From assembly GCA_030390025.1 (NCBI GenBank), contig CM059432.1, forward strand, positions 17,114,001 through 17,178,000: a DNA stretch of 64,000 nt, in the 5' to 3' direction. Positions 9,004 through 62,782 of this stretch are shown here, piece after piece. The stretch's first letter is position 1; each line of letters opens with the position of its first letter. The DNA is from Squalus acanthias (Eukaryota). The position numbers and the translations under genes are program-made. Below the pieces are notes generated by a model. It was not told where the DNA came from. It worked only from the letters and a program-made list of their open reading frames with translations, and did no database searches.

Positions 9004-9123
9004 GTATTTAACATGAAACCTCTGCAGGTTGTGTTGCCTTCAAGAGAGGACCCCAAATACCCTATAGTAGATTTGGACCTTCACACCCCTTTTCTCTGCT
9101 TCAAACCGAAATGTATCCTTCAG
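9004..9123 (+). CDS. DENND3: DENND3 exon (window exon 3), [40 protein letters not shown]
   Basis: CAG acceptor, GTAAC donor, 120 nt phase 0-0; DENN core sequence. Confidence 0.95.
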
Positions 9124-10722
9124 GTAACTAGTGCTCCATAATTTGGAGTTGTATTTTCCAATCTGTCTAAGCTTCAGACTTTCATTTATGCACTTTGTGT
9201 TCTCTGCATTAACATTTTAAGGTGATCATTCTATTATTTGTTTTATTAATGTTGTTTGTCTCTTTTTATTTCAATTCCATATCCTCATTCTGATTATCAA
9301 CAGAATACTCGAGCTCAGTTCACCCAATAGACGCTGTTAGGATTATTGTTTTGGTAGGCTTCTTAGAAGGTATGCTTGAGTGTTACAAGAAGGGTTGCCT
9401 TCCAAGCTAATTTTCTCTCTGGGCTGATCGGTGCTGGGTGTTGGAGAGGCGGAAATTGAGGGCAAAGGAAATGCCAGTGGGTTGTCAAGCCAGAGAGAGG
9501 GGCTGGGAAACTGATGGTTGTAGGATGCAAGTTGTGTGTAATTGGGTGGTTTTAACTAATCGAAGATAAGCATGGATGGAAAGTATGCTGTCGGAGAAGA
9601 GCAAATGTGAAGCCTGTAGTGGAGCTTGGGAGGGGAAGAGGAGTGACTATCTGGCCTGTAGGGGAGCTACTGGAATGGTTTTTGGTTCAATAATGGGGAA
9701 TGGAGGAACAGGGCGAGTGCTAGTTGAGGAGGTTAAGAAGCAGAGTTGGTGAGGGTGGGGCTGACGAGAGGCAAGATTTGGAGTTAGGTTCCTTGGATAA
9801 GAGAATGAATATAATGGGTCTCTGTAATTTAGGTTTCTACTTTCAGATGTACCTGGTTGTGCAGAGCTGTCTTTCCTCATTCGCCCACTCCTCTGAAGCT
9901 TGAAAACTTGGAAGATTCACTTTTTTAAAGTTCCTAGCCTGGAGATTACGAAGGTTGATTGCAGATTTTTTTGAGGGAATTGGATATATACTTGAAGGAG
10001 CAAAAATTGCAAGGATATGGGGAAAGAGCGGGGAACTGGGACTAACTGGATTGCTCTTCGAAAAAGCCGGCGCAGACTCGATGAGCCGAATGGCCTCCTT
10101 CTGTGCTTTACTATTCTATGATTGGTCAAAATTCACCAAACATGGAGTGGCCTTTTCTAGTCCTCCAGGTCTGGGAGAAAAAAAGTGTGCAAAGGAGAAA
10201 GGAACCGAAGGGTCTTCGTGGGCTGGATCAGTGGGACTTTGTGGGCCACATATGGCCAGAAGGCAGCAACCTGGGCGCCCCACCCTGAATTATTGTTGCT
10301 GAGTTCCGTACTGCAGCCTCTTTGGTCAGACACAAACCAAAGTCACAAGTGCCACGTTCAGGGATGTCAATATGTACAATGCCTCATCATTAAATAAAAA
10401 CACCATATGCAACCAAAATCTCAGTTTTTAATTGTAAACTCTAAACCTCATCCAACAAAAGTTGTAAAAGAAGAATATTGCAGTTATTTGCTGTTACTAA
10501 ATTGATTTGATTTAATACAGCTGATGACCATGGTTTCCTTATGGCTGTCACTCATAAGTTATACAGCCTTTGTCATATTTTAGGAAAATATATTCATCTA
10601 ATCTCATTAATCTCATCCTCTCTTTGTCCCACTCATCCATAATTCAGGAGATTTTACGGTACAATCTGGATACCTTAAAACTGTTCCCCATTCCTTCATT
10701 CACTGAGTAGCTGTGGGACACT

Positions 10723-15790: not shown

Positions 15791-17187
15791 TAACATCTCC
15801 AACAGTAATTAAAACTTTATGGAATGAGACGCCACCCTTGCAATAGTTAATTTTCAGTGCCAGAAGAGGTTGTTTGGCAGTAATTAAAACTTATTATGTT
15901 GTTAAAAGGGTACTTGGACTGAAATGGAAAAGACTCAACTTTCTGTGGCAAGATTAGTTTGTATCTACCGTGCAAGTACAGCAACTTCATGCCGTTCAAT
16001 GTACTTGACTGGTGAGGCAGACCACGAGATGCCGTTTTCGTGAAGCTAATGGTGGAGAGGCGCATCTTGGACAGCAATTTTTGGATTTCTGTGTTTAACC
16101 ACACATCTGCCCTCGCCTGAAGTTGCTATAGCATATTGGGTGCTACAGGGCCTCACTCTCCTCTACCAAAATTGCTGACTATTCCAGGATCATTCTTGGA
16201 AGCCAAGATAGTGCCCAGTTTTTCTCAACTACTAAATATCTCCTTATCCCCTCTTCCCTGCCCCCTTCATTCTACCTGCAACAACAAGTGCAAGAACCTC
16301 AAGAACTTCTTTGTCACTAAGAATGAGTCCATCTATTGAGCTGCCGCTACTGCTTCCTTCCTTCCCCTTCTCCTTTTGCCTAAGCTTGAACCTGTGTCTC
16401 TCATCAGCTTGTCTTCATTCTCCCTCCATGCCCTCTCTGAGTTTATCTTGTCCATGAGAACCACCTCCTGCTCCTATGACCCCTTTCCCACTAAACTGCT
16501 GACCACCCAACATCCTTCCTGGCTCCCAGACTAGCTGACATTGTAAATGGTTCCCTTTCCTTGGGTACTTTCCTCTTCCATTTCAGAACTACTATCATCA
16601 CCCCCCTTAAAAAAAAAAAAACCACCCTCGACCTTCTGTCCTTGCAATCTATTGCCTATTTCCAACCTCCCTTTCCTCTCAAGTACTTAATATGTTGTAT
16701 CCTCCTAAACCCATGTTTATCTTTCCCTCAACTCTGTTTGAATCTCTCCGATTAAGTTTCCGTCTCTGCAACAACACCAAAACGGCCCTAACCAAAGTAA
16801 CAAATGACATTCTCTGGGATTTTGACTATGATAGCGTTATCCCTCCTATTCTCTTGCCTTTCTGTAGCCTTTGTCACAGTCGACTTTGCTATCCTCCAAC
16901 GCCTCTCCTCCATTGTCTAGCTCAATAGGACTGCCCTTGCTTGGTTCCATCTTACCTATCCTATTATTGCCAGGACGTCTCCAGAAATGGCATCTCTTCT
17001 CACTTCTGCACCATTATCTCTAGAGTCCCCCAAGGATTTATCCTTGGCTCACTCCTCTTCCCCATCTACATGCTGCCCTGTGGCAATGTCACCCACAGAC
17101 ATGGGGGTCAGCTTCCATATGTAGGCTGAGGACACCAGCTCTACCTCTGCACCATCTCTCAACCCCTCCACTGCCTTTATACAGTCA

Positions 17188-17566
17188 TGATGTGGAGATA
17201 CCGGCGTTGGACTGGGGTGGACAAAAATGAGAAGTCGCACAACACCAGGTTATAGTCCAACAGATTTATTTAAAATTACAAGCTTTCGGAGCTGTCGCCC
17301 CTTCCTCAGGTAGAGTAGCTGTGAGAGAATCTCCCAGAATTCACAATATAAACACAGAAAAAATGTATTCAAATCTTTCCCTACATCAAAGATGTGTCTT
17401 TGATGTAGGGAAAGATTTGAATACATTTTTTCTGTGTTTATATTGTGAATTCTGGGAGATTCTCTCACAGCTACTCTACCTGAGGAAGGGGCGACAGCTC
17501 CGAAAGCTTGTAATTTTAAATAAATCTGTTGGACTATAACCTGGTGTTGTGCGACTTCTCATTTTT
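17188..17566. mobile_element. Penelope-like mini-insertion: perfect inverted pseudo-LTR arms (17223-17392 and 17397-17566) plus a 35-nt one-sided tail
   Basis: 170-bp perfect inverted repeat with TGTG spacer; 12-bp direct repeat TTTATACAGTCA at 17176-17187 and 17564-17575; hammerhead-like core in each arm. Confidence 0.85.
17477..17512 (+). ncRNA. Minimal type I hammerhead ribozyme-like motif (mirror copy on - strand at 17277-17312)
   Basis: UAC-CUGAGGA-A-GGGGC(GACA)GCUCC-GAAA-GC-UU-GUA: core boxes, 5-bp stem II, palindromic AAGCUU stem III, 3-bp stem I. Confidence 0.65.
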
Positions 17567-18912
17567 ATACAGTCAGGCAGCCTGTCTGACATCCAGTCTT
17601 GGATGAGCTAGAATTTCCCTCCGTTAAACATCAGGAAGACTGCAGCCATTATTTTTGGCCTCTACCACCAGCTTGCCACCGATTCCATCTCCCTCTCTGA
17701 CCTCGCACTCAGGCTGAATCAGACTGTTAGCAACTTTGCTGTTTTATTCGACTCCGAGCTCCAACCCCAAGTTCTCTCCATCACAAAGACTGCCTACTTC
17801 CTCCTCACTTGCCTCTGGCCCTATTTCAGCCTGTCTGCTGCTGAAATCCTCTTCCATACCATTGTCACCTCCAGGCTCAACTATTTCAATTCTCTCCTGG
17901 CCTGTCTTTGATCCTCCACCTCTGTAAATTTCAGTTCATCCTAAACTCTCCTCCCTGTATCCCATCCTGCACCAAGTCCTGCTCACCCGTCATCCCTGTC
18001 CTTACTGACTTACATTGGTTCCCGGTCCCCCAATACCTCAAATTTAACCTTCTCATCCCCATGTTGAAATCCCATGTGCATTGCTCACTTTGCGCCAACA
18101 TTGGTGGCCTTGCCTCCAGCCATCTATGCCCCATGCTCTGTAATTCCTTTCCTAAACCCCACTGCTTCTAAACCCCTCTTTCCTTCCTTAAGACCCTCCT
18201 TAATATCCACTTTTTTGATCACCCCTCCTTTTCCTTTCGAAGAGCCTGGGATTGTTCATTATGGAGAAGAGAAAACTCTGAGGAGATTTGTTCAAGTATT
18301 CAAGATTCTTAAGGGACTAGATGAATTGAACCCTGATCATGTTTCTGAGATTGCCACAAGTCAGCAAACATGGGCTCAAGCATAGAAGAGGGAAGGTGCA
18401 CAGACAGTTTAGATTTAACTACTTTCGGCAGAGAGTGGTGGACATGTGGAAAAGAATGTCCAAGGTGACTTTGCAGGTAGATTGCGTGAATTTTACAGCA
18501 CAGAAAGTAGCCTTTATCCTGTCACATCTGCTCCAGCTGGCTGAAAAAGCTATCCACTTAATTTCATTTCCCTGCCCCTTCTCTTCTCTCTCTAAAACAT
18601 TCCCTTAAAGAGCTTACATTTAGAGTATACTTCCTTTTACTGTCTTTTTCCCCCCAAAAAATACTGCATGTTTCACTACATTGAACTGCATCTGCCACTT
18701 ATCTGCTCACTCCACTAAGTTGTTGATGCCCAGCTGCATTTTTCCTTTCAGTTTACCATGCTGTCTAATTTGATATCGGTAGTAAATTTTGATATTATTC
18801 TTCTACCTGTGTCCAAATCATTTATATAAGTAGGTCAGAATCACACACGCACCAACTATGCACATATTGAGAATATCTAATGAATCTATTCAGAAGCTGT
18901 CACTAATATAAT

Positions 18913-19957: not shown

Positions 19958-20176
19958 ATCCTGACATGTATTTTAATTGAACAGAGGATCGTCTTTCTGT
20001 CAGCTGATTGGGCTTTGCTGACACTCATTGCAGAATGTTTTATTCTCTATCTTCACCCGCTCCAGTGGCAACATACTTATGTGCCTATCCTGTCCAAAGG
20101 AATGATGGATTTTCTGATGGCACCAACAGCTTTCCTCATGGGCTGCCACGTTGATTACTTTAAAGAAGTTAACTCT
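19958..20176 (+). CDS. DENND3: DENND3 exon (window exon 4), [23 protein letters not shown]...[15 protein letters not shown]...[11 protein letters not shown] (DENN core)
   Basis: TAG acceptor, GTAAGT donor, 219 nt; hallmark DENN motif PLQWQHxYVPIL...APTxFLMG. Confidence 0.97.
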
Positions 20177-27713: not shown

Positions 27714-28748
27714 ATTCACGTACGGACCGGGGTCAAGCAAGGCTGTGTCATCGCACCAATGCTCTTTTCGATCTTCCTGGCTGCAATGCTCCATCTCGCC
27801 CTCAGTAAGCTCCCCGCTGGAGTGGAGCTAATCTACAGAACAAACAGGAAACTGTTCAACCTCCATTGCCTCCAGGCCAGATCCAAGGTCGCCCCATCCT
27901 CTGTCATTGAATTACAGTATGCAGACGACGCTTGCGTCTGCGCACACTCTGAGGTCGAACTCCAAACCATCGTCAACACCTTCACCGAAGCGTACGAGAG
28001 CATGGGCCTTACATTAAACATCCGTAAGACAAAGGTCCTCTATCAACCTGCCCCCGCCACACCGTACTGCTCCCCGATTATCAAAATCCAGGACGAGGCC
28101 TTGGACAACGTGGACCACTTTCCATACCTCGGGAGCCTACTGTCAACAAAGGCAGACGTCGACGATGAAGTCCAACACTGCCTTCAGTGTACCAGTGCAG
28201 CCTTCGGTCACTTGAGGAAGAGAGTGTTTGAAGACTCAAACCCAGCACCAAGCTCATGGTCTACCAAGCAGTATTGATACCCGCCCTCCTGTATGTTTCA
28301 GAGACATGGACCATGTACAGCAGGCACCTCAAAGCACTGGAGAGGTACCACCAACGCTGCCTCCGCAAGATCCTGCCAATCCATTGGCAGGATAGGCGCA
28401 CCAACGTCTGTGTTCTCGCTCAGGCCAACATCCGCAGCACCGAAGCTTTGACCACGCTCAATCAGCTCCGATGGACGGGCCACATCGTCCGCATGCCTGA
28501 TACGAGACTCCCAAAACAAGTGCTCTACTCTGAGCTCCGACACGACAAGAGAGCCCCAGGTGGGCAGAAGAAATGCTTCAAGGACACCCTCATAGTCTCC
28601 TTGGAAAAAGTGCAACATCCCCACCGACACCTGGGAATCCCTGGCCCAAGACTGCACAAAGTGGAAGAGAAGCATCCGGGAAGGCGCCGAACACCTCGAG
28701 GCTCTTCGCCGGGAGCAAGCAGAAGCCAAGCGGAAGGAGCGCACACAA
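27714..28748 (+). mobile_element. RTE-clade LINE fragment
   Basis: TGVKQGCVIAP...LQYADD...FPYLGS; LRWTGHIVRMPDTRLPKQ. Confidence 0.93.
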
Positions 28749-33646: not shown

Positions 33647-36597
33647 AACAACAACTTGTATTTATATCGCGCCTTTAATGCAGTAAAATGTCCCAAGATG
33701 CTTCAAAGGAGCGTTATCAAACAAAATTTGACACTGATCCACGTAAAAAGATATTAGGGCAAATGACCAAAAGCTTGGTCAAAGAGGTAGGTTTTAAGGA
33801 GCGTCTTAAAGGAGGAAAGAGAGGTAGAGAGACGGAGATGTTTAGGGAGCAATTCCAGCACTTAGGGCCTTGGCAGCTGAAAGCAAGGCTGCTAATGGTG
33901 GAGCGATTTAAAATTGGGATGCTCAAGAGGTCAGAATTGGAGGAGCGCAGCTATCTCCTGAGGAGATTTCAGAAATAGGGAGGGGTGAGGCCTTGGAGAG
34001 ATTTGAAAACGAGGAGGAGAATTTTTAAATCAAGGTGTTGCTTAACCGGGAGCCAATATTGGTCAGTGAGCACAGGGGTGATAAGTTAATGGGACATAGT
34101 GCGAGTTAGGGCAAAGGCAGCAGAGTTTTGAATGACCTCAAGTTTATGGAGGGTAAAAAATGGGAGGCTGGCCAGGAGTGCGTTGGAATAGTCAAGTCTC
34201 GAAGTAACAAAGGCATGAATGAGGGTTTCAGCAGCAGAGGAGCTGAGGCGGGGTGGAGTAGGGTGATGTTACGGAGGTGGAAATAGGCGGTCTTAGTGAT
34301 GGCGCGGATATGTGGTCAGAAGCTCATCTCGGGGTCAGATATGACCCCAAGGTTGCGAACAGTCTGGTTCAGTCTCAGACAGTTGCCAGGGAGAGAAATG
34401 GAGTCAGTGACTAGGGAACGGAGTTGTGGCGGGGAAATTTCTGCTCATCCAGTACTGCATGTCGGACAAGCAGTGACAATTTAGAGACAGTGGAGGGGTT
34501 GAGCGAGCTGGTGGTTAGGTAGCGCTGGGTGTCGTCACCGTACATGTGGCAACTCGCGCTATGTTTTCGGATGATGTCGCTGAGAGGCAGCAGGTAAGAA
34601 CATAAGAAATCGGAACAGGAGTAGTCCATTTGGCCCTTCAAGCCTGCTCCGCCATTCCATAAGATCATGGCTGATAATCTACCTCAACTCCATTTTACTG
34701 CACTATCCCCATCTCCCTTGATTCCCTTAATATACAAAAATCTATCGATCTCTGCCTTGAATATACTCAACGACTGAGCCTCCACAGCCCTCTGAGGTAG
34801 AGAATTCCAAAGATTCACTACCCTCTGAGTGAAGAAATTTCTCCTCATATTTGTCCTAAATGGCCGACCCCTTATTCTGAGCCTGTGACCCTGTGTTCTC
34901 GACTCCCCAGCCAGGGGAAACATCCTCCCTGCATCTACCCTGTCAAGCCCTGTAAGAATTTTGTATGTTTCAATGAGATCACTTCTCATTCTTCTGAACT
35001 CCAGAGAATATAGGCCTAGTCTACTCAATCTCTCCTCATTGGACAATCCACCCCCATCCCAGGAATTAGTCTGGTGAACCTTCATTGCACTCCCTCAATG
35101 GCAAATATATCCTTTCTTAGGTAAGGAGACCAAAACTGTACACAATACTCCAGGTGTGGTCTCATCAAGGCCCTATATAATTGCAGTAAGACGTCTTTAC
35201 TCTTATACTCCAATCCTTTTGTAATAAAGGCCAACAGACCATTTGCTTTTCTAATTGCTTGCTGTACCTGCATATTAACTTTCAGTAATTCGTGTACAAG
35301 GACACCCAGGTCCCTCTGAACACCAACATTTCTCAACCTCTCACCATTTAAAAAATACTCTGCTTTTCTGTTTTCCCTCCCAAAGTGGACAACTTCACAT
35401 TTCTCCACATTATATTCCATTTGCCATATTCTTGCCCACTCGCTTAACCTATCTATATCACCTTGCAGCCTCTTTGCATCTTCCGCACAACTTACATTCC
35501 CACCGAGCTTTGTATCATCAGCAAACTTGCTCATCCAAATCATTGAAATAGATTGTAAATAGCTGAGGCCCAAGCACTGATCCTTGTGGTACCCCACTAG
35601 TTACAGCCTGCCAACCCGAAAATGACCCGTTTATTCCTACTCTCTGTTTTCTGTCCGTTAACCAATCCTTAATCCATGCTAGTATATTACCCCCAATCCC
35701 ATAAACCCTAATTTTGCTTAATAACCTCTTGTGTGGCACCTTATCGAATGCCTTCTGAGAATCCAAATACACTACATCCACTGGTTCCCCCTTATCTATT
35801 CTGCTAGTTTCAACCTCAAAAATCTCTAACAGATTTGTCAAACACGATTTCCCTTTCATAAATCTGTGCTGACTCTGCTAAATTCTATTATTATTTTCTA
35901 AGTGCCCTGTTACCACGTCCCTAATAATAGATTCTAGCATTTTCCTTACTACTGATGTCAGGCTAACTGGTCTGTAGTTCCCCGTTTTCTCTCTCCCTCC
36001 TTTCTTAAATAGTGGGGTTACATTTGTTACCATGTAGATGAGTAATAGGAGGGGGCCAAGGATAGATCCTTGGGGGACCCCAGAGGTAATGGAGCAGGAA
36101 GAGAAGCCATTGCAGGTGATTCTCTGGCTACGACTGGATAGATAAGAATGAAAACGGGCGAGTGCAGTTGCGCCCAGCTTGACGACGGTGGAAAGGCATT
36201 GGAGGAGGATGCTGTGATCAACCATGTCAAAAGCTGCAGACAGGTCGAGAAAACGAGGAGGGATAGTTTACCTTTGTCACAGTCATATAGGATGTCATTT
36301 GTGACTTTGATAAGAGCTGTTTCGGTACTGTGGCAGGGGCGGAAACCTGATTGGAGTGATTCAAAAATGGAGATCGGGAAAGATGGGCACAGATTTGGGA
36401 GGCGACAACACGTTCAAGGACTTTGGAGAGGAAAGGGAGGTTGGAGATAAGGCGGTAGTTGACGAGGATGGAGTGGTCGAGGGTTGTTTTTTTGAGGAGA
36501 GTGGTGACGACAGCAGATTTGAAGGAGAGGGGGACAATACCTGAGGAGAGAGAACTGTTAACCAGATCAGCTAACATGGGAGCCAGGAAGGGAACCA
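33647..36597 (-). mobile_element. L2 LINE split into 33647-34596 and 36031-36597 by a CR1
   Basis: Same family as 13128-15430; CAACAACAAC tail; GAACCA at both outer junctions. Confidence 0.9.
34597..36030 (-). mobile_element. CR1 RT to 3' end, nested in L2
   Basis: [36 protein letters not shown]; flanked by CAGGTA/CATGTA. Confidence 0.92.
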
Positions 36598-36654
36598 CTA
36601 AGTTTTTGTGTTGATTTTATCAAAACTCTTCAGGTTAGTGTGGGGGGAAAGCAG

Positions 36655-36736
36655 GGATGGAGAGAAGGCAGCTAAAGCCCATAATGTGTGGTACCTGCAT
36701 GACGTGGGAGGTCCTGAATACTTTGTGTGTCCACAT
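36655..36736 (+). mobile_element. Old CR1 ORF1 N-terminal relic (zinc-finger start); likely continues at about 40148-40400, with 5' UTR at about 33190-33645
   Basis: MERRQLKPIMCGTCMTWEVL resembles the CR1 ORF1 CxxCxxWE motif; VSESEEQLAT-like continuation after 40147. Confidence 0.55.
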
Positions 36737-36739
36737 GCA

Positions 36740-39700
36740 CTAGAGGAGAAGTACTAGGCAAACTAATGGGACTAAAGGCTAACAAGTCCCCTGGACTTGA
36801 TGGTCTGCATCCTAGGGTCTTAAAAGAAGTGGCTGCAGAGATAGTAGATGCAGAGGTTGTAATCTTCCAAAATTCCCTAGACTCTGGAAATTTCCCAGCG
36901 GATTGGATTGGAAAACCGCAAACAAAATGCCCCTATTCAAGAAAGGAGGGAGACAGAAAGCAGGAAACTACAGGCCAGTTAGCCTAACATCTGTCATTGG
37001 GTAAATGCTGGAATCCATTATTAAGGAAGTAGTAGCAGGGCATTTAGAAAATCATAATACAATCAAGCAGAGTCTACATAGTTTTATGAAAGGGAAATCG
37101 TGTTTGACAAATTTGCTAGAGTTCTTTGCGGATGTAACGAGCAGGGTGAATAAAGGGGAACCAGTAGATGTAGTGTGTTTGGATTTCCAAAAGGCATTCG
37201 ATAAGGTGCCACATAAAAGGTAACTGCTCAAGATAAGAGCTCACGGTGTTGGGGGGAATATATTAGCATGGATAGAGGATTGGCTAACTAACAAAAAAGA
37301 GAGTCGGGATAAATGAGTCATTTTCAGGTTGGCAAGCTGTAACTAGTGGGGTGCCACAGGGATCAGTGCTGGGGCCTCAACTATTTACAATCTATATTAA
37401 TGACTTGGATGAAGGGACCGAGTGTATTGTAGCCAAATTTGCTGACGATACAAAAATAGGTGGGAAAGCAAGTTGTGAGGCGGACACTATGGCTGGAATT
37501 TTGCCGGCGCTCAGAGGGTGGGTTTGGAGGTGGGTCCGCTGTCAAAATAGCAAAGATTGACCGGATAGCAAACCTGCTTTCAACACACTTCCACGTGAGT
37601 CTTCCAGGTGTCTGGTCTGTAAGCGGAGAACTGACCCGACACCAAGCAGCGGGGGAGACAATTGAGCTCATTAAATGGCTGTTTAAGAGCCAATTTAATG
37701 GTTTTTTGAGGCTTCCTTCCAATTTTACGTGCTCCCCCACAGGTTACCCGCTGCTCGGGGAACATGCCAGCTCACCCTGGTGTGAGTTGAGTCTGCTTTG
37801 ATGTATCTGAGAAGCTGACAGCTGCAGAAGTGGTGTAAAGGATGCCATGTTACAGGTGGTCAGTTTCAGAGCGCAGAAACTGTTGGTTACTGCATTTGAA
37901 ATACATATAGAGATTTCTTTAGCTTGCAAGTGTTTAGAGTCAACTGTGCGTCCAGTGCCACCTCATTGGAACAACCTCTCTCACCATTGACAGATCGCTT
38001 CTGTCATCTCATCTGTAGCTGCCATCTATTGCAGCAACATCGGTGCCCTTGGAAAAAATCAGACCTTGCTCCTCTGAATCGTTCCACGATTAGTTCCAAC
38101 ACCAACATCACCAGGCACAACAACATCACAACATCACCAAATTTCTCTGCCAACACCTGATGCTGCACAGGACACGGCATCAGCCCCTGACAACATTGCT
38201 GCCCGTGAGGCCAGCGGTGGCATCATCATGGTCAGATTTACTTCACTTGACGCTGTACAACCTGGCTGGCACATGATGAGCCAGGTTGACACCATCCCAC
38301 ACCAGCACCGTAAAGCATTCCTTTAATGTCCAAGCCATTCCATGCACACTCATCACTATAGTGGGTGGGGGGGAAGTTATGTCTCAACATTCAATGGAAC
38401 TCAGTGAGACACTTCTCAAGGTGCGCACAGACCTGTCCAATAAGGGGTAGTGTTGAAAATATAGATTTCACTGTATGACAACACATTAGCAGAAACTTCA
38501 CATGGACATTGGCTAAACCTCTCAAGTTCCTACCCTTGTGTGTTGTTAGTTGGTATGCTTGCAGTAGGATGAGGGTGAGTGTGAGGGGTGGCTAGTGAGA
38601 TGGGGAAGTGATAATGTAGATAGAGAGGGCTGGGTGGAGGTGCAAGGTAAGTTGGTGTTAGTAAGGATGTGCAGGAGAAGGGTATGCAAGGCAGAGTGAT
38701 GGTGATGTGTTGAGTGGCACAGCAGGGTGAGTTTGAGTGTGGCTTTGCAGTAACGTTTCGTGATCCACTGAGATTATTAAAAGGTTGGCGCCACTGCAGC
38801 CAGGGATCCCTGACGGCATCCCTGCTTTTGCCCTCCTGTGCAATGTGCAGCCAGGCTGCGTTGGTGTCCTGGGGAGATCTCCCGCCCTTGGAAGGGAAGA
38901 GAACCTCCCTGCGTGCTGTGACTCCCTCCATAAGCATAAGGAGGGAGTCATTGGAGAGTCTAGGTGCAAGCATCCACCTTTGTGCAGTGCTTGTTAGTAT
39001 TTGCAGCACCTCAATGTTGTCAAACACTGATGGAGCAACTGTCAAACTCAATGTCGCCGTGGTCCCTTTAAGGAAACCGGCCGATGACGCGTCATCAAAT
39101 GACATCATCAGACCCACTTCCTGTTAATTGGCCGGGAAGCCCGCAGGGTGGGCTTAACTAGGCCAATCAAGAGAAAATCCCTTTGACAGAGCGGCTGCAG
39201 CTGGGAGCGAGACTGGAACCCGGAAACCAGCTCTCCCACCACCATCCCGACACCGCTGAGAAAATCGCAGCCAAAGAGTCTGCAAAGGGATATAGATAGG
39301 TTAATTGAGTGGGCAAAAATTTAGCAGATGGAGTATAATGTGGGAAAATGTGAGGTTATCCACTTTGGTAGGAAGAATAAAAAAGCAAAATATTATTTAA
39401 ATGGAGAGAGACTACAGAATGCTGTGGTACAGAGGGATCTGGGCGTCCTTGTACATGAAACACAAAAAGTTAGCATGCAGGTACAGCAAGTAATTAGGAA
39501 AGCAAATGGAATGTTGGCCTTTATTGCAAGGGGGATGGAGTATAGAAGTAGGGAAATCTTGCTACAACTGTACAGGGCATTGGTGAGACCGCACCTGGAG
39601 TACTGCGTACAGTTTTTGTCTTTTTATTTAAGGAGGGATATACTTGCATTGGAGGCAGTTCAGAGAAGGTTCACTAGGTTGGTTCCTGAGATGAAAGGGT

Positions 39701-40147
39701 TATCTTATGAGGAAAGGTTGAGCCTATAGTCATTGGAGTTTAGAAGAATGAGAGGTGATCTTATTGAAACATATAAGATTCTGAGGGGGCTTGACAGGGT
39801 AGATGCTGAGAGGATGTTTCCCCTCGTGGGGGAAATCTAGAACTAGGGGGCATAGTTTCATAATAAGGGGTCGCCCATTTAAGACAGAGATGAGGAGGAA
39901 TTTCTTCTCTGAGGGTCGTGAATCTTTGGAATTCTCTACCCCAGAGAGCTGTGGAGGCTGAGTCATTGAATATATTCAAGGCTGAGATAGACAGATTTTT
40001 GAACTTCAGAGGAGTCAAGGGTTATGGGCAACAGGCAGGAAAGTGGAGTTGAGGCCAAGATCAGATCAGCCATGATCTTATTGAATGGCAGAGCAGGCTA
40101 GAGCGGCCGAATGGCCTACTGCTGCTCCTATTTCTAATGTTCTTATG
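36740..40147 (+). mobile_element. CR1 RT to 3' end, split by a Harbinger element (36740-37490 and 39273-40147)
   Basis: [36 protein letters not shown]; resumes SLQRDIDRL; CR1 tail. Confidence 0.92.
37491..39272 (-). mobile_element. PIF/Harbinger-derived element with a Myb/SANT-like ORF remnant
   Basis: TIR GGCTGGAATTTT/AAAATCGCAGCC; minus ORF APRLSNDSLLMLMEGVTARREVLFP...AWLHIAQE...WLQWRQPFNNL. Confidence 0.8.
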
Positions 40148-51599: not shown

Positions 51600-54220
51600 T
51601 TCTTCTCTTCTTCTTAGGCAGTCCCTTGGAACCGAGGATGACTTGCTTCCACACTAAAAATGAGTTCTCAGGTGACTGATGAGTCCAATGCGGGACCGAC
51701 AGTCTCTGTCACAGGTGGGGCAGATGGTGGTTGAAGGATCGGGCGGGTAGGGTGCTTGGGTTGACGTGCGCTCCTTCCGCTGTTTGCGCTTGGCTTCCGC
51801 TTGCTCCCAGCGAAGAGACTCGAGGTGTTCGGCGCCTTCCCGGATGCTTCTCCTCCACTTTGTGCGGTCTTGGGTCAGGGATTCCCAGGTGTCGGTGGGG
51901 ATGTTGCACTTTTTCAAGGAGGCTTTGAGGGTGTCCTTGAAACGTTTCCTCTGCCCACCTGGGGCTCTCTTGCCGTGTCGGAGCTCCGAGTAGAGCGCTT
52001 GTTTTGGGATCTCGTATCGGGCATGCGGACGGTGTGGCCCGTCCATCGGAGATGATCGAGCGTGGTCAAAGCTTCGACGCTGGGGATGTTGGCCTGAGCG
52101 AGAACACTGACGTTGGTGCGCCTACCCTGCCAATGGATTTGCAGGATCTTGCGGAGGCAGCGTTGGTTGTGCCTCTCCAGTGCTTTGAGGTGCCTGCTGT
52201 ACATGGTCCATGTCTCTGAAGCGTACAGGAGGGCGGGTATCACTACTACTCGGTAGACTATGAGCTTGGTGCTGGGTTTGAGGTCCTGAGTTTGAGGTCC
52301 TGATCTTCGAACGCTCTCTTCCTCAGGTGACCGAAGGCTGCACTGGCACACTGAAGGCGGTGTTGGACTTCGTCATCGACGTCTGCCCTTGTTGACGGTA
52401 GGCTCCCGAGGTATGGAAAGTGGTCCACGTTGTTCAAGGCCTCGTCATGGATTTTGATAATCGGGGAGCAGTACTGTTTGGCGGGGGCAGGTTGGTAGAG
52501 GACGATGGTTTGGAGTTCGACCTCCGAGTGTGCGCAGACGCAAGTGTCGTCTGCATACTATAATTCGATGACAGAGGATGGGACGACCATGGATGTGGAC
52601 TGGAGGCAACGGAGGTTGAACAGTTTCCCGTTTGTTCTGTAGATTAGCTCCACTCCAGCGGGGAGCTTACTGAGGGTGAGATGGAGCATTGCAGCCAGGA
52701 AGATCGAGAAGAGCGTTGGTGCGATGACACAGCCTTGCTTGACCCCGGTCCGTACGTGAATTGGGTCTGTGGTGGATCCGTTGGTCAGGATCACTGCTTG
52801 CATGTCGTCATGAAGCAGGCGGAGGATGGTGACAAACGTTTGAGGGCAGCCGAATTTGAGGAGGACACTCCATAATCCCTCACGGTTGACTGTGTCGAAG
52901 GCCTTTGTGAGGTCAAAGAAGGCCATGTACAGCGGTTGGTGCTGTTCCCTGCATTTCTCTTGGAGTTGACTCGCGATGAAGATCATGTCCGTTGTGTCCC
53001 TTAGTGGGCGGAATCCGCATTGCGACTCTGGGAGGAGCTCTTCAACCACTGGGAGAAGTCGATTGAGGAGAATTCTTGCGATGACTTTCCCTGTGACGGA
53101 CAGCAGGGTGACTCCTCTGTAATTACCGCAATCGGACTTGTCACCTTTCTTGAAGCTGGTCACAATTACGGCATCTCTGAGATCCCCTGGCATGCTCTCC
53201 TCCTTTCAAATAAGAGAAATGAGTTCATGTATTCGCGCCAATAGTGCTTCTCCGCCATGTTTTAGCACCTCGGCAGGGATTCCATCTGCTCCTGAGGCCT
53301 TGTTGTTGTTCAGTTGTCGGATGGCCTTTTCAACCTCATGTCAGGCTGGGGTTGTGCTGAGGTGGTGGCGGGTAGCATGCTGCGGGATGGAGTTGAGGAC
53401 ATTCGCATCAAAGACAGAGTCTCGGTTAAGGAGATCTTCAAAGTGCTCCTTCCAGCGGGCACTGACTGCCTCTCTGTCCTTGATGAGTACCTCTCCGTTC
53501 TTGGCCCGCAGTGGGGTAGGACCTTGGGTGCTTGGGCCGTAGGTGATCTTGACTGCGCTAAAGAATTCACGCACGTCGTGGTTGTCGGCTAGCTGCTGGA
53601 TCTCCTGCACTTTCTCCACCCACCATCTGTTCTTTAGGTTGCGAGTTTTTTTTTTGGACCTCTGCCTTCAGGCGTCTGTAGAGCTGCTTTCTTGCTCTCG
53701 AGTTCTGCTGCTGTTTCCAGATCAGGAATGCCTTGCGCTTGCGGCTTATTAGCTCTTGGATCTCCTGGTCGTTCTCTTCGGACCAGTCTTGGTGTTTCCT
53801 GGTCGAGTGACCGAGCGTCTCTTCACAGGTGCTGATTATGGAGGCCTTGAGTGCAGACCAGGCGCTGTGGACACTCTGTGTCTCTGCATCACTGGGAGTC
53901 GTCAGGTTGGTTGTGAGGCGCAGGCTGAATAGGGCTTTCTTAGCAGGGTCTTTGAGTGCTCCAGTGTTGATTTTCCTGCTTCTGTTGTCGCCGCTGTTTT
54001 GGGGCTACGTTGATGGAGATGACAGAGCGGATTAGGTGGAGGTCTGTCCAGCAGTCGCCAGCTCCTGTCATGGCGAGGGTGATGCGGACGTCCTTGCGGT
54101 CCCTCGCTCGGACGATGACGTAGTCCAGCAGATGCCAGTGCTTGGAGCGAGGGTGTTGCCATGAAGCCTTGTACTTGTCTCTCTGACGGAACAAGGTGTT
54201 GGTATGACAAGGCCATGTTC
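51600..54220 (-). mobile_element. RTE-clade LINE, 5'-truncated, with C-terminal zinc finger and (GAA)n tail
   Basis: WHLLDYVIVR, NYRGVTLLS, QCGFRP, FFDLTKAFDTV, CPTCDRDC..LISHLRTH; TTC repeats at 51600. Confidence 0.94.
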
Positions 54221-55804
54221 TAAGTTAGTGGATGGGTAAATGATGCAAGAGGCTGCACCATTAGATGGAGCTAACTTGATGGGCCTAATCTTTTCGTATG
54301 TATATGTATGAACCAAGAGAACAGGAGATCGTTCCACTAACAGAATTATAAATATCTGGACTGGTTGAGGGTTTTTAAACTAACCTCTTCATGCTGTTGG
54401 TACCCAATGCTGCTATAATAATCTGCTGTCATCTAGTGGATATGCTTGATAATAGCAGTTTGTGGATCAAAAATGTAGGAAACACACCATTTTGTTACAC
54501 CCAAAAACCTACATACCCAAACAGCCCCTTTTCCTAAAAAAAAAACCAAATTCCTCAGGGTGTGAGATTAATGTATCATTATCTGTGCCTAGTTGTTTGT
54601 TCATTAAGGAATTAGGCCCAAACACCAACATTGCAAATAAAGTTTTCTAGATTTGCAAGCTTATGGCTGGCCATACTAATTGAGTAATGAGCCAGACTTG
54701 GTTAATAATCTAACAGTAAATGAGCATTTATCTAACAGTGATCATAATATGATTAAATTCAATGTTAAGTTTCTCCTTTTCAAACCTAACACAATTACTA
54801 AGGTTCTAGATTTTGGTAAGGCTAACTTTAATGGGATGAGAATGACGACAGCAAACTGGTCAAAACAGTTATCAGCTAAAACTACAGATGAACAGTGGCG
54901 GTGTTCAAAAAGGAATTTTGTTTAATACAGGACCAATATATACCCCGAAGGGAAAAGAACTCTACTTACCAAATAAAAGAGCCATGGTCGACAAAAGAGG
55001 TGAGAGATCACATAAAACTGAAGGAAAGAGCATATAAAAGTGCAAAGAATGGTGTAAACTCAGGGGACTGGGGGAGAGAGAGAGAGAGCAACTCCATGCG
55101 TTTGAATGCCGAGTCTCTCGGTGATGTACCAGTGTAGCGAAGCTTGTGGAGGAGCAGGGCAAATCGAACAGCATCTTCCTGATTTCCACATTTAACTGCG
55201 CATGTGCGGTCACCAGAAGTTGCTGTCCGATTTACTCCATAATAACGGTGAGCGCCGATAGCCTCACCATTATTCCTACCACAAAATCTCGGGCCATTAA
55301 TGATATATTTATGGTCTATGATTTCCAGGTATATCGCTTCATCCTTGTCAGTCAAAGCTTCACCAATATCAGTTCCCATCTCCTTTAAGTTACACACATG
55401 CTGAATCGTAGATGTTGGACCTGAGATATTACTATAAATTAGATTCAGAATAGCTTCTGACTGCATTGGCTTTTCAACAGGCTAAGTAGGGAGGTAATCC
55501 TTCACCCACTTCTAGAAACATGCACTTCTTTGTTTTACCTCTATTGTTTTCCCTCAGTCAAATCTGAAAAGAACAACCTTAATTATCGTGACATGACATC
55601 GGAGCAATTTCCAACGCCTAAAGTGGTTTCAAGATCAGTATTTTACTTATCGGCTGAGACTGGTAAGCAGAATGTAACGCTGGACCATCTCCAAAAACTA
55701 ACAATGCTAACATCCATGCTGATGCCTTTTTACTTTTTAACAACATTGTCATGCTAGAGTGCTGCAGAATCTTCACAAACTCATCCACTGTTATAAAGAT
55801 TGAA

Positions 55805-56615
55805 TTTTATTCATTCTCGTTTTATGGGCATTGCTGGCAAAGCAGGCTTTTATTCCCCATCCTTAGTTGCCCTTAAAGTGGTGGTGGGCCGCCTTCTTGA
55901 ACTGCTGCAGTCCTTGTGGTGAAGGTACTCCTACAATACTTTAAGGAAGCGAGTTCCAGGATTATGACCCAGTGACTATGAAGGGATAGCGATGAATGTT
56001 CAAGTCAGGATGGTATTTGACTTGTAGGGAAACTTGGAGGTGATGGTGTTCCTATGCACCTGCTGCCCTTGTCTGTCTAGGTGGTGGTGGCTGTGCATTT
56101 GAGAGGTGTTGCCGAAGAAGCCTTGGCGAGTTGCTGCAGTGCATCTTGTAGATAGTGCATACACAGTACACTGGTGGTGAGGGAATGGATGCTTAATCTG
56201 GTGAATGGGGTGCAGATCAAGTGGACTAATTTGTCCTTGTTGTTGCAGCTGCACCCATCTAGGCAAGTTGAGATTATTCCAGCACACTCCTGATTTGTGC
56301 GTTATAGGTGGTGGAGAGGCTTTGGGGAGTTGGGAGGGGAGCCGCATGCCGCAGAATACCCAGCCTCTGACCTGCTGTTGTAGTCACAGTATTTATGTGG
56401 TTGGTCCAGTTAAGTTTCTGGTCAATGATGACCCCAGGATGTTGATAGTGGGGAATTTGGTGATGGTAATGCCATTGAATATCAAGGGGAAATGGTTAGG
56501 CTCTCTCTTGTTGGAGATGGTCATTGTCTTGTGTGACATGAATGTTACTTGCCACTTATCAGCCCAAGCTTGGATGTTGTCCAGGTCTTGTTGCATGCGG
56601 GCATGGACTGATTCA
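55805..56615 (-). mobile_element. 3' fragment of the LINE family at 23487-26362
   Basis: MQQDLDNIQAWADKWQVTF; colinear with 23490-24335. Confidence 0.85.
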
Positions 56616-56619
56616 TTAT

Positions 56620-57268
56620 TCTAACTCGCACCAAGTCCCGTTCACCCCTCACCTTGTGCTTGCTGACCTACATTGGCTCCCAGTCTGGCAATGGCTCGAT
56701 TTTAAAAATTCTCCTTGTTTTCAAACCCCTCCACGGCTTCGCCCTTTCCTATCTCTCTAACCTCCTCCAGCCCTACATTCCTCTGAGATCTCTGCACTCC
56801 TCCATTTCTGGCCTCTTGCGCATCCCCGATTTTAATCGCTCTACCATTTGGTGGCTGTGCTTTCAGCTACTTAGGCCCTAAGTTCTGGAATTCCCTCCCT
56901 AAACTTCTCTGCCTCTCTCCTCCTTTAAGATGCTTTTTAAAACCTACCTCTTTGACCAAGATTTTGGTTACCCTCTCTTTCCTCCTTTTAAGAAGCTCCT
57001 TAAAACCTACCTCTTTGACCAAGTGTTTGGTCACCTGCCCTAATTTATCCTTATGTGGATGGGTGTCAAATATTTTGTCTCAAAACACTCCTGTGCGGTG
57101 CCTTGGGACGTTTTACGTTAAAGGCGCTATATAAATACAAATTGTTGTTACCTGTCCTAATAGCTCCTTATGTGGCTTGGTGTCAAATTTTGTTTGTTAA
57201 CGCTCTTGCGAAGCACGTTGGGGCATTTTACTACGTTAAAGGTGCTGTATAAATGCAAGTTGTTGTTG
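56620..57268 (+). mobile_element. L2 3' end with duplicated terminal segments
   Basis: LADLHWLPV; two TATAAAT(A/G)CAA..TTGTTG tails. Confidence 0.88.
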
Positions 57269-58277
57269 AAATGTTGAAATTATGTATAGTATCAAAATTG
57301 AATAATGACAAGTAACTTAATGATGTGAACAAAAGGAAACCTTTTGCTTTATGTAGTTTCACTTGTCAGTTAACTGAACTATAATGGCAGAATTACTAAT
57401 CCATTTACATTTAGAAAAATTGGGCACCACTTAGTTTTGGAAAAGGAAAAACAGAAAATAACTTTATTTTTCAGGAGTTGCATAGTGGGTACTGTGTGTT
57501 GGAGCACTGACGCTCAGTACCATGAAATAGGGCCAATAGAAGTTTGATCCCATTCCATTCTGTTTCTGAGGTGAGTTATGTTGAGCAAATGCTGTGACCG
57601 CCGCCCCCCCCCCCCCCCCCCCCCCCCACAAGACTTCTTTGAGCATGATTGATATTACAAGGTCAGGTATCAATTTTGTGATTTTCATGCAGCAGTCGAG
57701 CCTAGGAAGGCCCACGGTTTTCTCTCTCGGTTAGCTGAGCTCTGCCAGTAGAGGCACTACATTGGGCATCAACAGCTTCTGGGCCAAGGAGGACAAAAAA
57801 ATACGGCTTGAATTCCAATCACTATCCATTGATACCAGATTAAAAAGTGTGCATGTGTGAATGAATGTTAGGCAACGACAGAATCAAGCAATAGGGTGTT
57901 AATGTTTCATTATCTAAATGCCTGGCAGAATTTGTTGTGTGGACTTACTCATGAAGAATGGCTACTTGGATTAGGTATTAGAGGGCTACCTGCACTCATG
58001 GAACCATATTTATCAAGAGTCAGCACCTTCAAAAGAGGAGGGGAGAAGGGGGGAAGAAAAGAAAATGGAAGAAAAGTGAAAGCAAGCTCATCCTGGATGG
58101 TGGTTCTTTTTCGCAAAGCTAGCTCAAACTACATCTCTGCAGCTTCTCTTATCAGTAAAAGTGACTAGTTGTCTCCCATTACTTGAATTTAGACCTTATT
58201 GACTGCAAGGAAATCTTTAGTAACCGATCTTATAAATTGGTAGAAATTTGTGGTAACAGAACTGGGAACACCATCAG

Positions 58278-59501
58278 CATAAGAACGTAAGACGTAGGAG
58301 CAGGAGTAGGTCATTTGGCCCCTTGAGCCTGCTCCGCCATTCAGTAAGATCATGGCTGATCTGATCTTGGCCTCAACTCCATTTCCCTGCCCGCTCCCCA
58401 AAATCCTTGACTCCCTTACCTTTCAAACATCTGTCTATCTCCACCTTAAATATATTCAATGACCCAGCCTCCACAGCTCTCTGGGGAAGAGAATTCCAAA
58501 TATTCACAACCCTCTGAGAGAAGAAATTCCTCCTCATTTCCAATTTAAAAGGGTGAAATTATGCCCCCTAGTTCTAGATTCCCCCACGAGGGGAAACATC
58601 CTCTCTGCATCTACCCTGTCAAACCCCTTCAGAATCTTATATGTGTCAATAAGATCCCCTCTCATTCTTCTAAACTCCAATGAGTATAGGCCCAACCTGC
58701 TCAACCTTTCTTCATAAGACAACCCTTTCATCTCCGGAATCAACCTCGTGAACCTTCTCTGAACTGCCTCCAATGCAAGTATATCCTTCCTTAAATAAGG
58801 AGACCAAAACTGTACGCAGAACTCCAGGTGTGGTCTCACCAACGCCCTGTACAGTTGTAACAAGATTTCCCTACTTTTATACTCCATTCCCTTTGCAATA
58901 AAGGCCAACATTCCATTTGCCTTCCTAATTACTTGCTGTTACCTGCATGCTAACTTTTTGTGATTCATGTCCAAGGACCCCCAGATCCCTCTGTACCTCA
59001 GCATTCTGTAATCTCTCCCCATTTAATTTAATAATTTGCTTTTTTATTTTTCCTACCAAAGTGGATAACCTCACATTTTCCCACATTAAACTCCATCTGC
59101 CAGATTTTTGCCCACTCACTTAGCCTATCTATATCCCTTTGGAGATTCTTTGCGTCCGCCACACAGTTTGCTTTCCCACCTATCTTTGTATCATCAGCAA
59201 ATTTGGCTACATTGCACTCAGTCCCTTCATCCAAGTCATTAATATAGATTGTAAATAGTTGAGGCCCTAGCACTGATCCCTGCGGCACCCCACTAGTTTG
59301 CCAACCTGAAAATGACCCATTTATCCCGACTCTCTGTTTTCTGTTAGTTAGCCAATCCTCTATCCATGCTAATATATTACCCCCAACCCCGTGAGCTCTT
59401 GTGTAGTAACCTTTTATGTGGCACCTTATCGAATGCCTTCTGGAAATCCAAATACACGACATCTACTGGTTCCCCTTTATCCTCCCTGCTCGTTACATCC
59501 T
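58278..59501 (-). mobile_element. CR1 RT to 3' end
   Basis: [34 protein letters not shown]; same subfamily as 36740-40147. Confidence 0.92.
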
Positions 59502-60604
59502 CATTTGGATATAGTAGTTTTTTTAATATGTATTCATTGGGACTGCTGCGGTTCGAGGAGAAGGGCCACCACCAACTTCTCAGGCTAATTACAGCTTTGC
59601 CCCCGTTCTGAGAATACATTTTTAAAAACTACTATATTCAAATGGGTAAAGACCATTTATTTCTGTTCTGGTAATTGGTAATAAGGTGTTACCAATTTAC
59701 AGTTGTTGCTAAAAGTGAGGAGAGTAGTTAGGAAAAAAATTCTTTGTACAGAAGGTTGATGGGATGCTTTGCCACAGGGAGTAGCTGTAGCAACTTTTAA
59801 GGGAAAATTGGATAAATATTTGAAGCAGGGTTGATAGAGCTATGGGGTGATTTGTACGAAGCAGTGGGATTAGTTTTGGATTGGTCTAGCAAAGAGCTAG
59901 TATAAACATAATGGGCCGAATAGCCACCTTCTGTGCTGTAAACATTTATGATTTTATGGTTCTATATATTGCACAGATCTGGTTGTTGAAATTTAGTGCA
60001 CTTTTAAATACCAACCTAATGTGTTTTCTCAATCCTGACGGCAAATGGGCCCTGTAATAAGGACAGACATAGCAAATGTAAAAGCAGGCCAAGGGTCTCG
60101 AGACTATTTTAAAACATGTATTTAGCAAAATTTAAGAACCTTGGGGAGGGACAAGGGGAGAGAGATTTTACTTAGGTGTTGCATTATGTCTCCGTAATAG
60201 GTTAAAGGTCAAGACTTCCACTGCAAAATGATGAATTAACAGGGAGATTAAAAGTTTGATATTGCCACAGTAATTAGAGTACCTCCATTTAATACTGAAA
60301 ACATTTAATGCTTCTCAAAGTTGTGTGCCTCCGTGCCTCTTTATTCCGCCTTTTTAACCATTTTCAAATGGCTGTCTGGATTGGTGCACTTCCTTCAACC
60401 CTGTGATTTCAGTTTCATTTTTTTTTCCTGCCTTTGTCCCCATTGGGAATCAGCTCCAGGTTATTCATTCCTTCCACCACATGCCACTAGGTTTCATAGT
60501 TTTTGTATGAGCAGTTGCAGTTCATTATTGTTTTGAGTTGAACAGAAGATGTGAGAAGCACAAGTGGCTGAGTTGAAACCTATGACTTCTACAGAGCTCA
60601 ATGA

Positions 60605-60870
60605 CTAGATTATCTATCTTAGTGACGTTGGTTGAGGCATAAATAATGGCTGGGGCATCAGGGAGAACTCCCCTGCTCTTCTCTGAATAGTGCCATGAGA
60701 TCTTTTACGTTCACCTGAGGGCAGATGGGGCCTTGGTTTAACGTTTCACTCGAAAGCCGGCACCTTGGACAGGTGCAGCACTCCCTCAGTACTGTACTGA
60801 AGTGTTGGCATAGATTATGTGCTCAAGTCTCTGGCGTGAGACTTAAACCCATGACCTTCTGGCTCTGAGG
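60605..60870 (-). mobile_element. DeuSINE 5' and central fragment (another piece at about 51331-51485)
   Basis: Reverse-complement similarity to 8405-8660. Confidence 0.75.
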
Positions 60871-61852
60871 CTACCCCTGAGCCAAGGTAGACACCCCAGA
60901 GTTGTTCAGAGAGAAGGATGAATAAAATTTTAAGTTCATCAAATATTGAGTTTCGTAATTTCTTGAAGCAAAACGTTTTTGCTCGGAGGCAGAAATGGAT
61001 AAATGAAAAAGAAAGCATGTATGGGGAATGGGATGAAGTGGATAGCTGTTTGAGAGATCTGGCACAGGATCGATGGGCCGGATGGTCGTCTCCTATGCTG
61101 TATAGTTATATGATTTTACACATAGGAATTGTGGTTAGCAATTTGGGTTACTAGGTTTCAGGTGGTTCTTATGGCTTCAACTGTTGCTTTGCTTTAACTA
61201 ATAGTTTCTCCCTTTACCTGCCTGTGGGGAAGAGCTGCTTTGCATTTGGTAGCTTTACACAGTAATGCAGCAAAATTGATAATTCAGCTAAGGAGGATTG
61301 ACCTATTACTTCACTGTGTCTTGGTGCTTCAACGTGCTGTGCCAACATGCCACATTATTAAATTGCCAGCACAATACATTTTTTACAGTCAGTTTTATGA
61401 ATTTGAGTTTTGCCTGCTGGGAGCACATACCAGGAAATCTTGGCAGTGCTTCCCACAATTTTGTACCCATTAATTTTAATGGATGGGAAATCTTGGGACG
61501 AATGCCTCTATTTCCCAATAAATGTTCCATATGGGTGAGGCTTGCTACTGGAAGCACACATTTGTAAAATTGGTCCTTGTGTTTTTTAACCCAAATATTG
61601 TAAATGTGGAACAATCAGTCAAGTTCATTTTCATAGCTGTTTTGAATATTGCGTGAAAGAAAAACTAATATTGGCTTTGCTTTCTTGCTTTGTGTGAATT
61701 TTATCTTCCGCCTTAAAGGACAGGCATTGCCTTCAGGATGTCTTTTAATATCCATTTAGAAGGAATTCTAATTTTTGAAAGGAGTACTGGTTGTCAGTTT
61801 CTTGTTTAATGTAAGTCATGCAATAAGAATTTCATTTTTTTTCATATTTAAG

Positions 61853-62112
61853 GGCATCTGAAACAGATTGATCCTGAGACGTTTAAAGACTTTTACAACT
61901 TTTGGAAGGAATCAGAGACTGAGGCTCGGGAAGTTAACCTGCCTCTGGAAGTGATAGAACACCTGGACAAAAATGAAAGTGTCTATAAATTGTCGTCGTC
62001 TGTGAAGACCAACTATGGTGTGGGTAAAATTGCATTGACACAGAAGCGACTGTTCCTTCTTATAGAGGGAAGACCTGGCTATGTTGAGATTGCCAAATTT
62101 AGAGACATACAG
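61853..62112 (+). CDS. DENND3: DENND3 exon (window exon 11), [19 protein letters not shown]...[25 protein letters not shown]...FRDIQ
   Basis: AAG acceptor after a T tract, GTAAT donor, 260 nt phase 1-0. Confidence 0.97.
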
Positions 62113-62260
62113 GTAATGCTTTGGAATAGTTCATACGATTTAGGCTTTTTCTGAATGCTTTGTAATTCTTTTGTCTTTTTTAAAAAGCTCGACACAGGTA
62201 GTGTGAAGCAGGGAACTGAAGCAGGGCCACTGCCCAATTATATAAGTTCAAGTTCTTCCG

Positions 62261-62782
62261 TCTTCTTCTTCTTCTTCTTCTTCTTCTTAGGCAGTCCCTC
62301 GGAACCGAGGATGACTTGCTTCCACATTAAAAATGAGTTCGCAGGTGACTGATGAGTCCAATGCGGGACCTACAGTCTCTGTCACAGGTGGGGCAGACGG
62401 TGGTTGAAGGAGCAGGTGGGTGGGTGCTTGGGTTGACGTGCGCTGCCTGCGCTTGGCTTCCGCTTGCTCCCGGTGAAGAGACTCGAGGTGTTCGACGCCT
62501 TCCCGGATGCTTCTCCTCCACTTTGTGCGGTCTTGGGCCAGGGATTCCCAGGTGTCGGTGGGGATGTTACACTTTTTCAAGGAGGCTTTGAGGGTGTCCT
62601 TGAAGTGTTTCCTCTGCCCACCTGGGGCTCTCTTGCCGTGCCGGAGCTCCGAGTAGAGCGCTTGTTTTGGGAGTCTCGTATCGGGCATGCGGACAATGTG
62701 ACCCGTCCATCGGAGCTGATCGAGCGTGGTCAAAGCTTCAATGCTGGGGATGTTGGCCTGAGCAAGAACACTGACGTTGGCC
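62261..62782 (-). mobile_element. RTE 3' fragment with (GAA)n tail
   Basis: Nearly colinear with 51600-52120; (TTC)n at 62261-62288. Confidence 0.93.

Follow-up and report, generated by a model that had tools for sequence, protein, structure and literature searches.

Head-to-head Penelope-like insertion in a DENND3 intron of Squalus acanthias and its probable origin by twin target-primed reverse transcription

The inverted repeats of Penelope-like elements (PLEs), which carry a tail at one end, have so far been explained by conjecture, with self-priming and endonuclease resolution as the suggested steps. In LINE-1 twin priming both strands of the target prime cDNA and the two products are joined through short microhomology, giving an inverted product flanked by a duplication. 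The inverted part of such a product copies an upstream stretch of the RNA. This differs from the shark PLE family described here, whose arms both start at one of two fixed sites and cover the same part of the RNA, so that a palindrome results.

Several described PLEs share features with the shark family. Pen2a of Adineta vaga and Penelope of Drosophila virilis have inverted pseudo-LTRs with promoter motifs, a target duplication and a tail of 31–34 bp at the ORF start, as they are presented in the consulted portions of PMC3846280 and PMC2377424. The shark insert differs from both in having no ORF body between its inverted ends and a duplication of 12 bp rather than 8–10 bp. Neptune-clade EN+ PLEs, as outlined in the available sections of PMC8557442, encode a reverse transcriptase (RT) followed by a CX2-5CxxC linker and a GIY-YIG endonuclease and form partial tandems. 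The same sections depict a 5'-truncated inverted copy, a 30–40 bp tail at one end and a hammerhead in the pseudo-LTR, all of which are seen in the shark. Opposite-strand pairs of hammerheads 100–700 bp apart were already noted in the accessible text of PMC4209133.

Biochemical data come from PMC11167929, here cited from part of the article, which reports that purified PLE protein nicks and extends both strands in vitro. Reverse transcription begins at two sites, the interval between them is the tail, and the protein is predicted to be a dimer. For Poseidon PAc of Anolis carolinensis, insertion proceeds without need of the hammerhead or its cleavage. The shark family resembles PAc in having two internal RT start sites with the tail between them, AT-rich targets (73% AT in the shark family) and an AC-rich start region. 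The distal start site lies 92 nt past the predicted ribozyme cut in the shark and 85–92 nt past it in PAc, and neither shows 5' ends at the cut. PAc belongs to a different clade, and the ORF start of the shark family lies at the end of the tail rather than in the ribozyme. In vitro, the two strands did not differ in start site and no homology was seen where synthesis began, unlike the shark junctions, which show 1–4 nt matches to the RNA. The consulted text of PMC11167929 offers no model of inverted insertions, and neither a twin-priming model for PLE inversions nor the present shark family was found in the literature searched.

The window analysed here is a 64-kb stretch of the S. acanthias genome, and the features discussed are listed in Table 1. 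An insert in a DENND3 intron consists of two arms that are exact reverse complements over 170 of 170 positions (17223–17392 and 17397–17566), as the preliminary description had stated. Its account of a 35-nt extension on the left arm only and of a 12-bp target-site duplication also holds. The four letters between the arms were described as a loop, however 17393–17396 are element sequence belonging to the right arm, as the whole of 17393–17566 is identical (174/174) to the full-length family copy L039. The right arm therefore extends 4 nt beyond the left at its 5' end, and the head-to-head join between the two shows no overlap and no microhomology. Element coordinates are counted from the last base of the tail, position 0, which is also the first base of the ORF start codon. 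On the minus strand, the left arm and tail cover element positions -204 to 0 and differ by a single substitution, which lies in the tail and is private to this copy. The palindrome folds with a z-score of -44 against 100 shuffles. Among the 25 longest of the 93 inverted repeats in the window it is the sole near-perfect, short-range one. The window also holds inverted pairs of dispersed repeats at 79–95% (27714–28744, 35055–40147, 51778–62780) within DENND3 introns, some of them flanking exons.

Table 1. Features at and around the insert (window coordinates)
Feature	Position	Strand	Remarks
DENND3 exon upstream of insert	9004-9126	+	aa 247-287 of P0001; tblastn 90% identity; GT donor next
Host LINE, left part (old, broken; insertion target)	16929-17187, left bound approximate	+	RT fragment, L2/CR1 group
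Target-site duplication, left copy, 12 bp	17176-17187	+	last 4 letters match element continuation; microhomology at distal start site
Penelope "tail", 35 nt	17188-17222	-	spans gap between the two family 3' ends
Left arm	17223-17392	-	element 3' region, sense on minus strand, reaches -204
Minimal type I hammerhead, mirror copy	17277-17312	-	motif search
Putative promoter, mirror	17322-17350	-	points towards upstream DENND3 exons
Right tail-less arm	17393-17566	+	element -208 to -35; blunt join to left arm
Putative pseudo-LTR promoter	17439-17467	+	TATA-like 17439-17443, likely RNA start near 17467
Minimal type I hammerhead	17477-17512	+	3-bp stem I, bulged A, 5-bp stem II, GAAA, palindromic stem III seed
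Target-site duplication, right copy	17564-17575	+	first 3 letters are also the arm end; microhomology at proximal start site
Host LINE, right part	17576-17930, right bound approximate	+	paralogous-copy alignment
DENND3 exon downstream of insert	19958-20176	+	aa 287-359; DENN exon, 99% identity to shark DENND3 proteins

Removal of the insert and one duplication copy restores the interrupted host repeat, and the reconstructed empty site aligns without gaps across the joint to seven of nine paralogous copies. The rejoining claimed earlier is thus borne out. The host's label as L2, rather than another LINE of the CR1 group, is presumptive and based on RT motifs. Twelve DENND3 stretches were located on the plus strand by tblastn, and the exons ending at 9126 and starting at 19958 hold consecutive codons, so the insert is intronic, as first described. 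The intron is in sense orientation and measures 10.8 kb, and 2.4 kb separate the insert from the closest exon.

On sequence grounds the insert is the 5'-truncated 3' end of a PLE, probably of Neptune type, that encodes RT, a CX4CxxC linker and GIY-YIG. All 40 scored genomic copies match the left arm and tail at 99.5–100% over 205 nt in the 3.7-Gb assembly, and longer copies continue into an ORF with an RT domain (PF00078, E 1.5e-8). The GIY-YIG domain of this ORF (PF01541, E 1.7e-4) scores 22.2 bits, just under the Pfam cut-off of 22.6. The ORF is 44% identical over 501 aa to a related protein (P0152) whose GIY-YIG passes that cut-off. The C-x4-C-xx-C linker lies between RT and endonuclease (in P0122), and a PDB sequence search with the PLE protein returned no meaningful match. 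L039 is a full partial tandem with a 3035-bp unit and a 132-bp repeat at both ends, and L125 is similar. L039 places the start codon at the last base of the tail and carries frameshifts. These features uphold the Penelope-type origin proposed in the preliminary description, along with its view of a protein-free insertion with inverted pseudo-LTRs and a one-sided tail, as the coding domains are absent from the insert. The linker between RT and endonuclease is common to Neptune and Nematis in the part of PMC8557442 consulted. The Neptune assignment is suggested by the linker and by the best protein relatives of the ORF (sharks first, then turtles and alligator) rather than by a tree.

Full- or near-full-length copies of the family lie at L039:249–3415, L125:771–4449 and L182:339–3676. 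At least two co-active subfamilies are present, and most of their differences lie in the 3' untranslated region. L036:1939–4182 holds a related PLE ORF in which a deletion separates RT from endonuclease, adjoined by 67-bp tandem arrays (L036 650–1226 and 4509–5409) with hammerhead motifs nearby, a retrozyme-like arrangement.

The family is abundant. For a 46-nt stretch covering the hammerhead, the genome gave 1031 exact matches, and for its reversed control none. The first 100 matches listed (all 66 on contig 1 and the first 34 on contig 2) were sampled as arms selected by this stretch, with the bounds of inverted copies set by hand. They represent 77 insertions, of which 44 are inverted, extrapolating to ~790 insertions genome-wide and ~450 inverted copies. 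The whole 379 bp matches 16 other places at 83–99%, all palindromes of 362–394 bp. Two of these are one duplicated insertion, leaving 15 other independent palindromes of about the same length. Perfect stems of at least 80 bp occur in 21 of the 34 inverted copies examined (10 of the 44, longer than 1400 bp, were skipped). Three sampled palindromes have a perfect stem of 159–186 bp with a loop of at most 7 nt, and stems longer than that of the DENND3-intron insert are found in L105 (186 bp) and L027 (177 bp). The insert is consequently not special but ordinary, and belongs to a known class with many other head-to-head insertions.

The perfection of the arms had been taken to show a very recent insertion. 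Paired arms diverge by 0.93% on average (65 pairs), at which zero differences in 170 bp are expected with a chance of 0.21, about 1 in 5, and 28 of the 65 pairs likewise show no differences over their shared columns. The youth of the insertion follows from that of the family, and arm perfection adds little. Near-identical target sequences within other repeats have been reused in the flanks of L002, L010, L043, L135, L145, L167 and L178, and likewise in L021/L023 and L030/L099/L172, which suggests preferred sites.

The ends of the copies follow a strict pattern. The 3' ends of the 100 sampled arms are bimodal, almost all lying near 0 or at -30 to -43, giving two fixed ends ~37 nt apart. Among the 44 inverted copies, 43 have one tailed and one tail-less end (p 2.6e-12 if ends chose freely). 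The exception, L146:397–634, is tail-less at both ends with no duplication identified. Single copies use either end (15 of 33 tailed, 18 of 33 tail-less), and 19 of the 33 have their own target-site duplication. A duplication and a tailed end were found in 65 of 70 inverted copies examined, with 61 of the 65 duplications measuring 12–14 bp. Matches between junction and RNA average 1.61 nt at one junction (61 clean of 65) against 0.77 in shuffles, and 2.03 nt at the other (62 of 66) against 1.07, averages reached by none of 2000 shuffles.

The 5' ends of paired arms are coupled, lying within 15 nt of each other in 22 of 43 pairs against 5.1 expected by permutation. With the short class removed, 12 of 28 pairs still stop within 40 nt against 2.9 expected. 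The tail-less arm is the longer in 20 pairs, the shorter in 19 and equal in 4. In 12 of the 43 it outreaches the tailed arm on the 5' side by more than 20 nt, with the reverse in 9, and in the DENND3-intron insert it does so by 4 nt. Both subfamily tags were in reach in 36 pairs, of which 29 were scorable (23 BB and 6 AA); none was mixed, against 9.5 expected.

A cluster of 5' ends points to a probable start of the RNA. Thirty of the 100 sampled arms end at -127 to -140 (17461–17474 on the plus strand of the window) against 2.6 expected from the neighbouring plateau, while none ends at -141 to -149. The pile-up persists in the 47 arms not chosen by motif, though older subfamilies may stop aligning there. 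An apparent spike at exactly -128 proved to be an alignment artefact of a sister subfamily, with three references giving -127 to -140. A TATA-like stretch precedes -134 by 28 nt, and the pile-up falls just before the hammerhead. We take the sequence at -134 to fit the initiator consensus. These ends are probable run-off copies from an RNA 5' end at about -134. As the DENND3-intron arms reach past this start motif, each may hold a putative outward-facing promoter. The sequence at this position also resembles a splice acceptor; in D. virilis an intron terminates at helix I, according to the available text of PMC4209133.

The hammerheads themselves are of minimal form. The preliminary description placed a core with a palindromic stem III in each arm, which was recovered at 17480–17509 on the plus strand (core 17480–17486, predicted cut between 17509 and 17510) and as its mirror on the minus strand. 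Like the minimal PLE hammerheads in the consulted section of PMC4209133, the motif has an extra base after A9, G10.1–C11.1, a palindromic 15.2/16.2 pair and no stem III loop, whereas its stem I is 3 bp rather than 4–5 and position 17 is U. Across 47 distinct variants, stem I covaries as three Watson-Crick sets (20, 8 and 8 variants), a pairing not demanded by the motif descriptor. The palindromic pair is GC in 33 and CG in 9, and position 17 is never G. The hammerhead is therefore constrained at the level of the family. Rfam hammerhead models gave no match at E values up to 10 over the region or a single arm. This is expected as the motif is without stem III and loop I, and lowers only the case for a canonical hammerhead. 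The model scan called for earlier thus failed as an Rfam match, while a minimal hammerhead with compensatory changes stands.

As noted at the outset, any one transcript carries one sense motif together with its antisense. The twin motifs cannot act as a dimer in cis as they lie on opposite strands, and they are predicted to be masked, with a stem II probability of 0.0 in the plus-strand pre-mRNA context against 0.98 alone. Every pre-mRNA prefix tested was already zipped to the mirror in folding predictions. Stem II is predicted to reach only 0.17 even in RNA from the putative start without the mirror arm, and cofolding predicts a 6-bp intermolecular helix with stem I not formed. Among the 47 arms not chosen by motif (one a duplicate and one cut by the locus edge), none has its 5' end at the predicted ribozyme cut, and the cut site is intact in all 1031 exact matches. 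In these folding models, the hammerheads of the DENND3-intron insert are likely passive cargo masked by the hairpin. A second hammerhead repeat family, distinct in both stem I and stem II, occurs at window position 49983 (+) and in L103, L165, L035 and L020; in the copy at 49983 the stem III palindrome is broken.

Taken as a whole, the insert is probably a 5'-truncated head-to-head insertion that arose through twin target-primed reverse transcription, with both cDNAs likely copied from one RNA and the hammerheads likely inert. The element protein, probably as a dimer, would cut both target strands 12 bp apart. The left target end would prime at the distal start site, position 0, through a 4-nt match to the RNA, and the right target end at the proximal site, about -38, through a 3-nt match. 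Synthesis of both cDNAs would then halt near -204/-208, probably where the RNA ended or a shared stall occurred, and host repair would join and fill them in, leaving the hairpin as a by-product. Both 3' sites would be priming sites, as each of them also terminates single copies that have a duplication of their own. The one-of-each rule, the unmixed subfamilies and the 12 of 43 pairs that do not fit a fold-back together favour twin priming on one RNA, as read from the genomic copies. For the family as a whole we lean slightly towards a one-step origin in which a dimer on a single RNA would nick 12–13 bp apart and make an obligatory one cDNA per start site through 1–4 nt of pairing. Run-off copies would then map the likely RNA start to about -134, and Penelope activity would go on seeding perfect hairpins by the hundreds.

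Some observations weigh against twin priming. The mechanism is suggested by end products alone, and no arm leads (20 longer, 19 shorter), which a leader and follower on one RNA might predict; L146 is tail-less at both ends. The in vitro results of PMC11167929, in which the strands shared their start-site use and began without homology, also speak against it. Subfamily concordance could alternatively reflect two RNAs of one active locus or gene conversion between arms. An endonuclease preference could account for the T-first, A-last bias of the duplications and the excess of junction matches.

A doubtful alternative is that one cDNA snapped back and copied itself, with endonuclease resolution leaving the one-sided tail. 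Self-priming on an antisense template was proposed for PLE inverted junctions in the consulted part of PMC3846280, and the available sections of PMC8557442 ascribe the tail to EN-mediated resolution. Such a fold-back accounts for identical arms and concordant subfamilies and suits the nine pairs whose tailed arm is more than 20 nt longer. In the 12 opposite pairs and in the DENND3-intron insert, however, each arm holds sequence that the other lacks, which excludes either arm as a fold-back copy of its partner. Single copies, which use both end sites and bear a duplication in 19 of 33 cases, also argue against it, as does a centre junction in the insert that offers no microhomology for the snap-back.

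It is unlikely that the insert is functional, its hairpin feeding Dicer, ADAR or dsRNA sensors and silencing the family in trans, or its promoters altering DENND3 expression. The hairpin anticipated in the DENND3 pre-mRNA is indeed predicted to be very stable (170 bp, -330.5 kcal/mol, mean pair probability 0.996), it lies in a sense intron, and both arms appear to retain the TATA-like and start motifs missing from most short copies. Nonetheless, nothing singles this insert out from the inverted copies estimated above and their perfect stems; it lies deep in the intron and shows no sign of selection. None of the Rfam miRNA matches reached its gathering score, and they are due to the shape of the hairpin. 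No function is required to explain the hairpin, and Dicer, ADAR or silencing roles, if real, would belong to hundreds of such loci.

An artefact, in which a fold-back chimeric read created the palindrome during assembly, is unlikely on structure alone and very improbable overall. The listed read contigs include no piece spanning the centre or the right junction. The left junction is crossed by one contig of run X1 (17112–17199, 0 differences) reaching only 12 letters past it, an overlap below the 31-letter bar of the mapping, and the assembly may itself have been built from X1. A fold-back read would mirror the flank, but the actual flanks differ, bear a direct 12-bp duplication and rejoin one LINE. 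Moreover, the arms terminate at the family's two natural end sites, and the same anatomy recurs at 15 other independent loci, each with different centres and duplications. Joints skipping the insert (406 and 411 nt; depth 24–94) are best read as paralogous LINE copies and not an empty allele.

Least credible of all is a self-mobilising, MITE-like or retrozyme unit spreading as a palindrome, despite the near-identical palindromes at 16 other places and the derivation of animal retrozymes from PLE pseudo-LTRs (in the portion of bioRxiv 10.64898/2026.07.22.740005 consulted), as centre junction and arm lengths differ from one look-alike locus to the next, the outcome expected of independent truncations. 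No tandem array is present, a junction and duplication are shared only by L066/L068, a segmental copy, and no second copy with the DENND3-intron centre occurs among the 40 scored candidates.

The locus itself, one of an estimated 450 inverted copies, matters little; the family it exposed matters more. With ~1% divergence, sharp duplications and a near-absolute rule of one end of each kind, this shark family provides a direct genomic test of the inversion mechanism. If some of the perfect intronic hairpins do yield small RNAs, the triggers for silencing the element would be of its own making.
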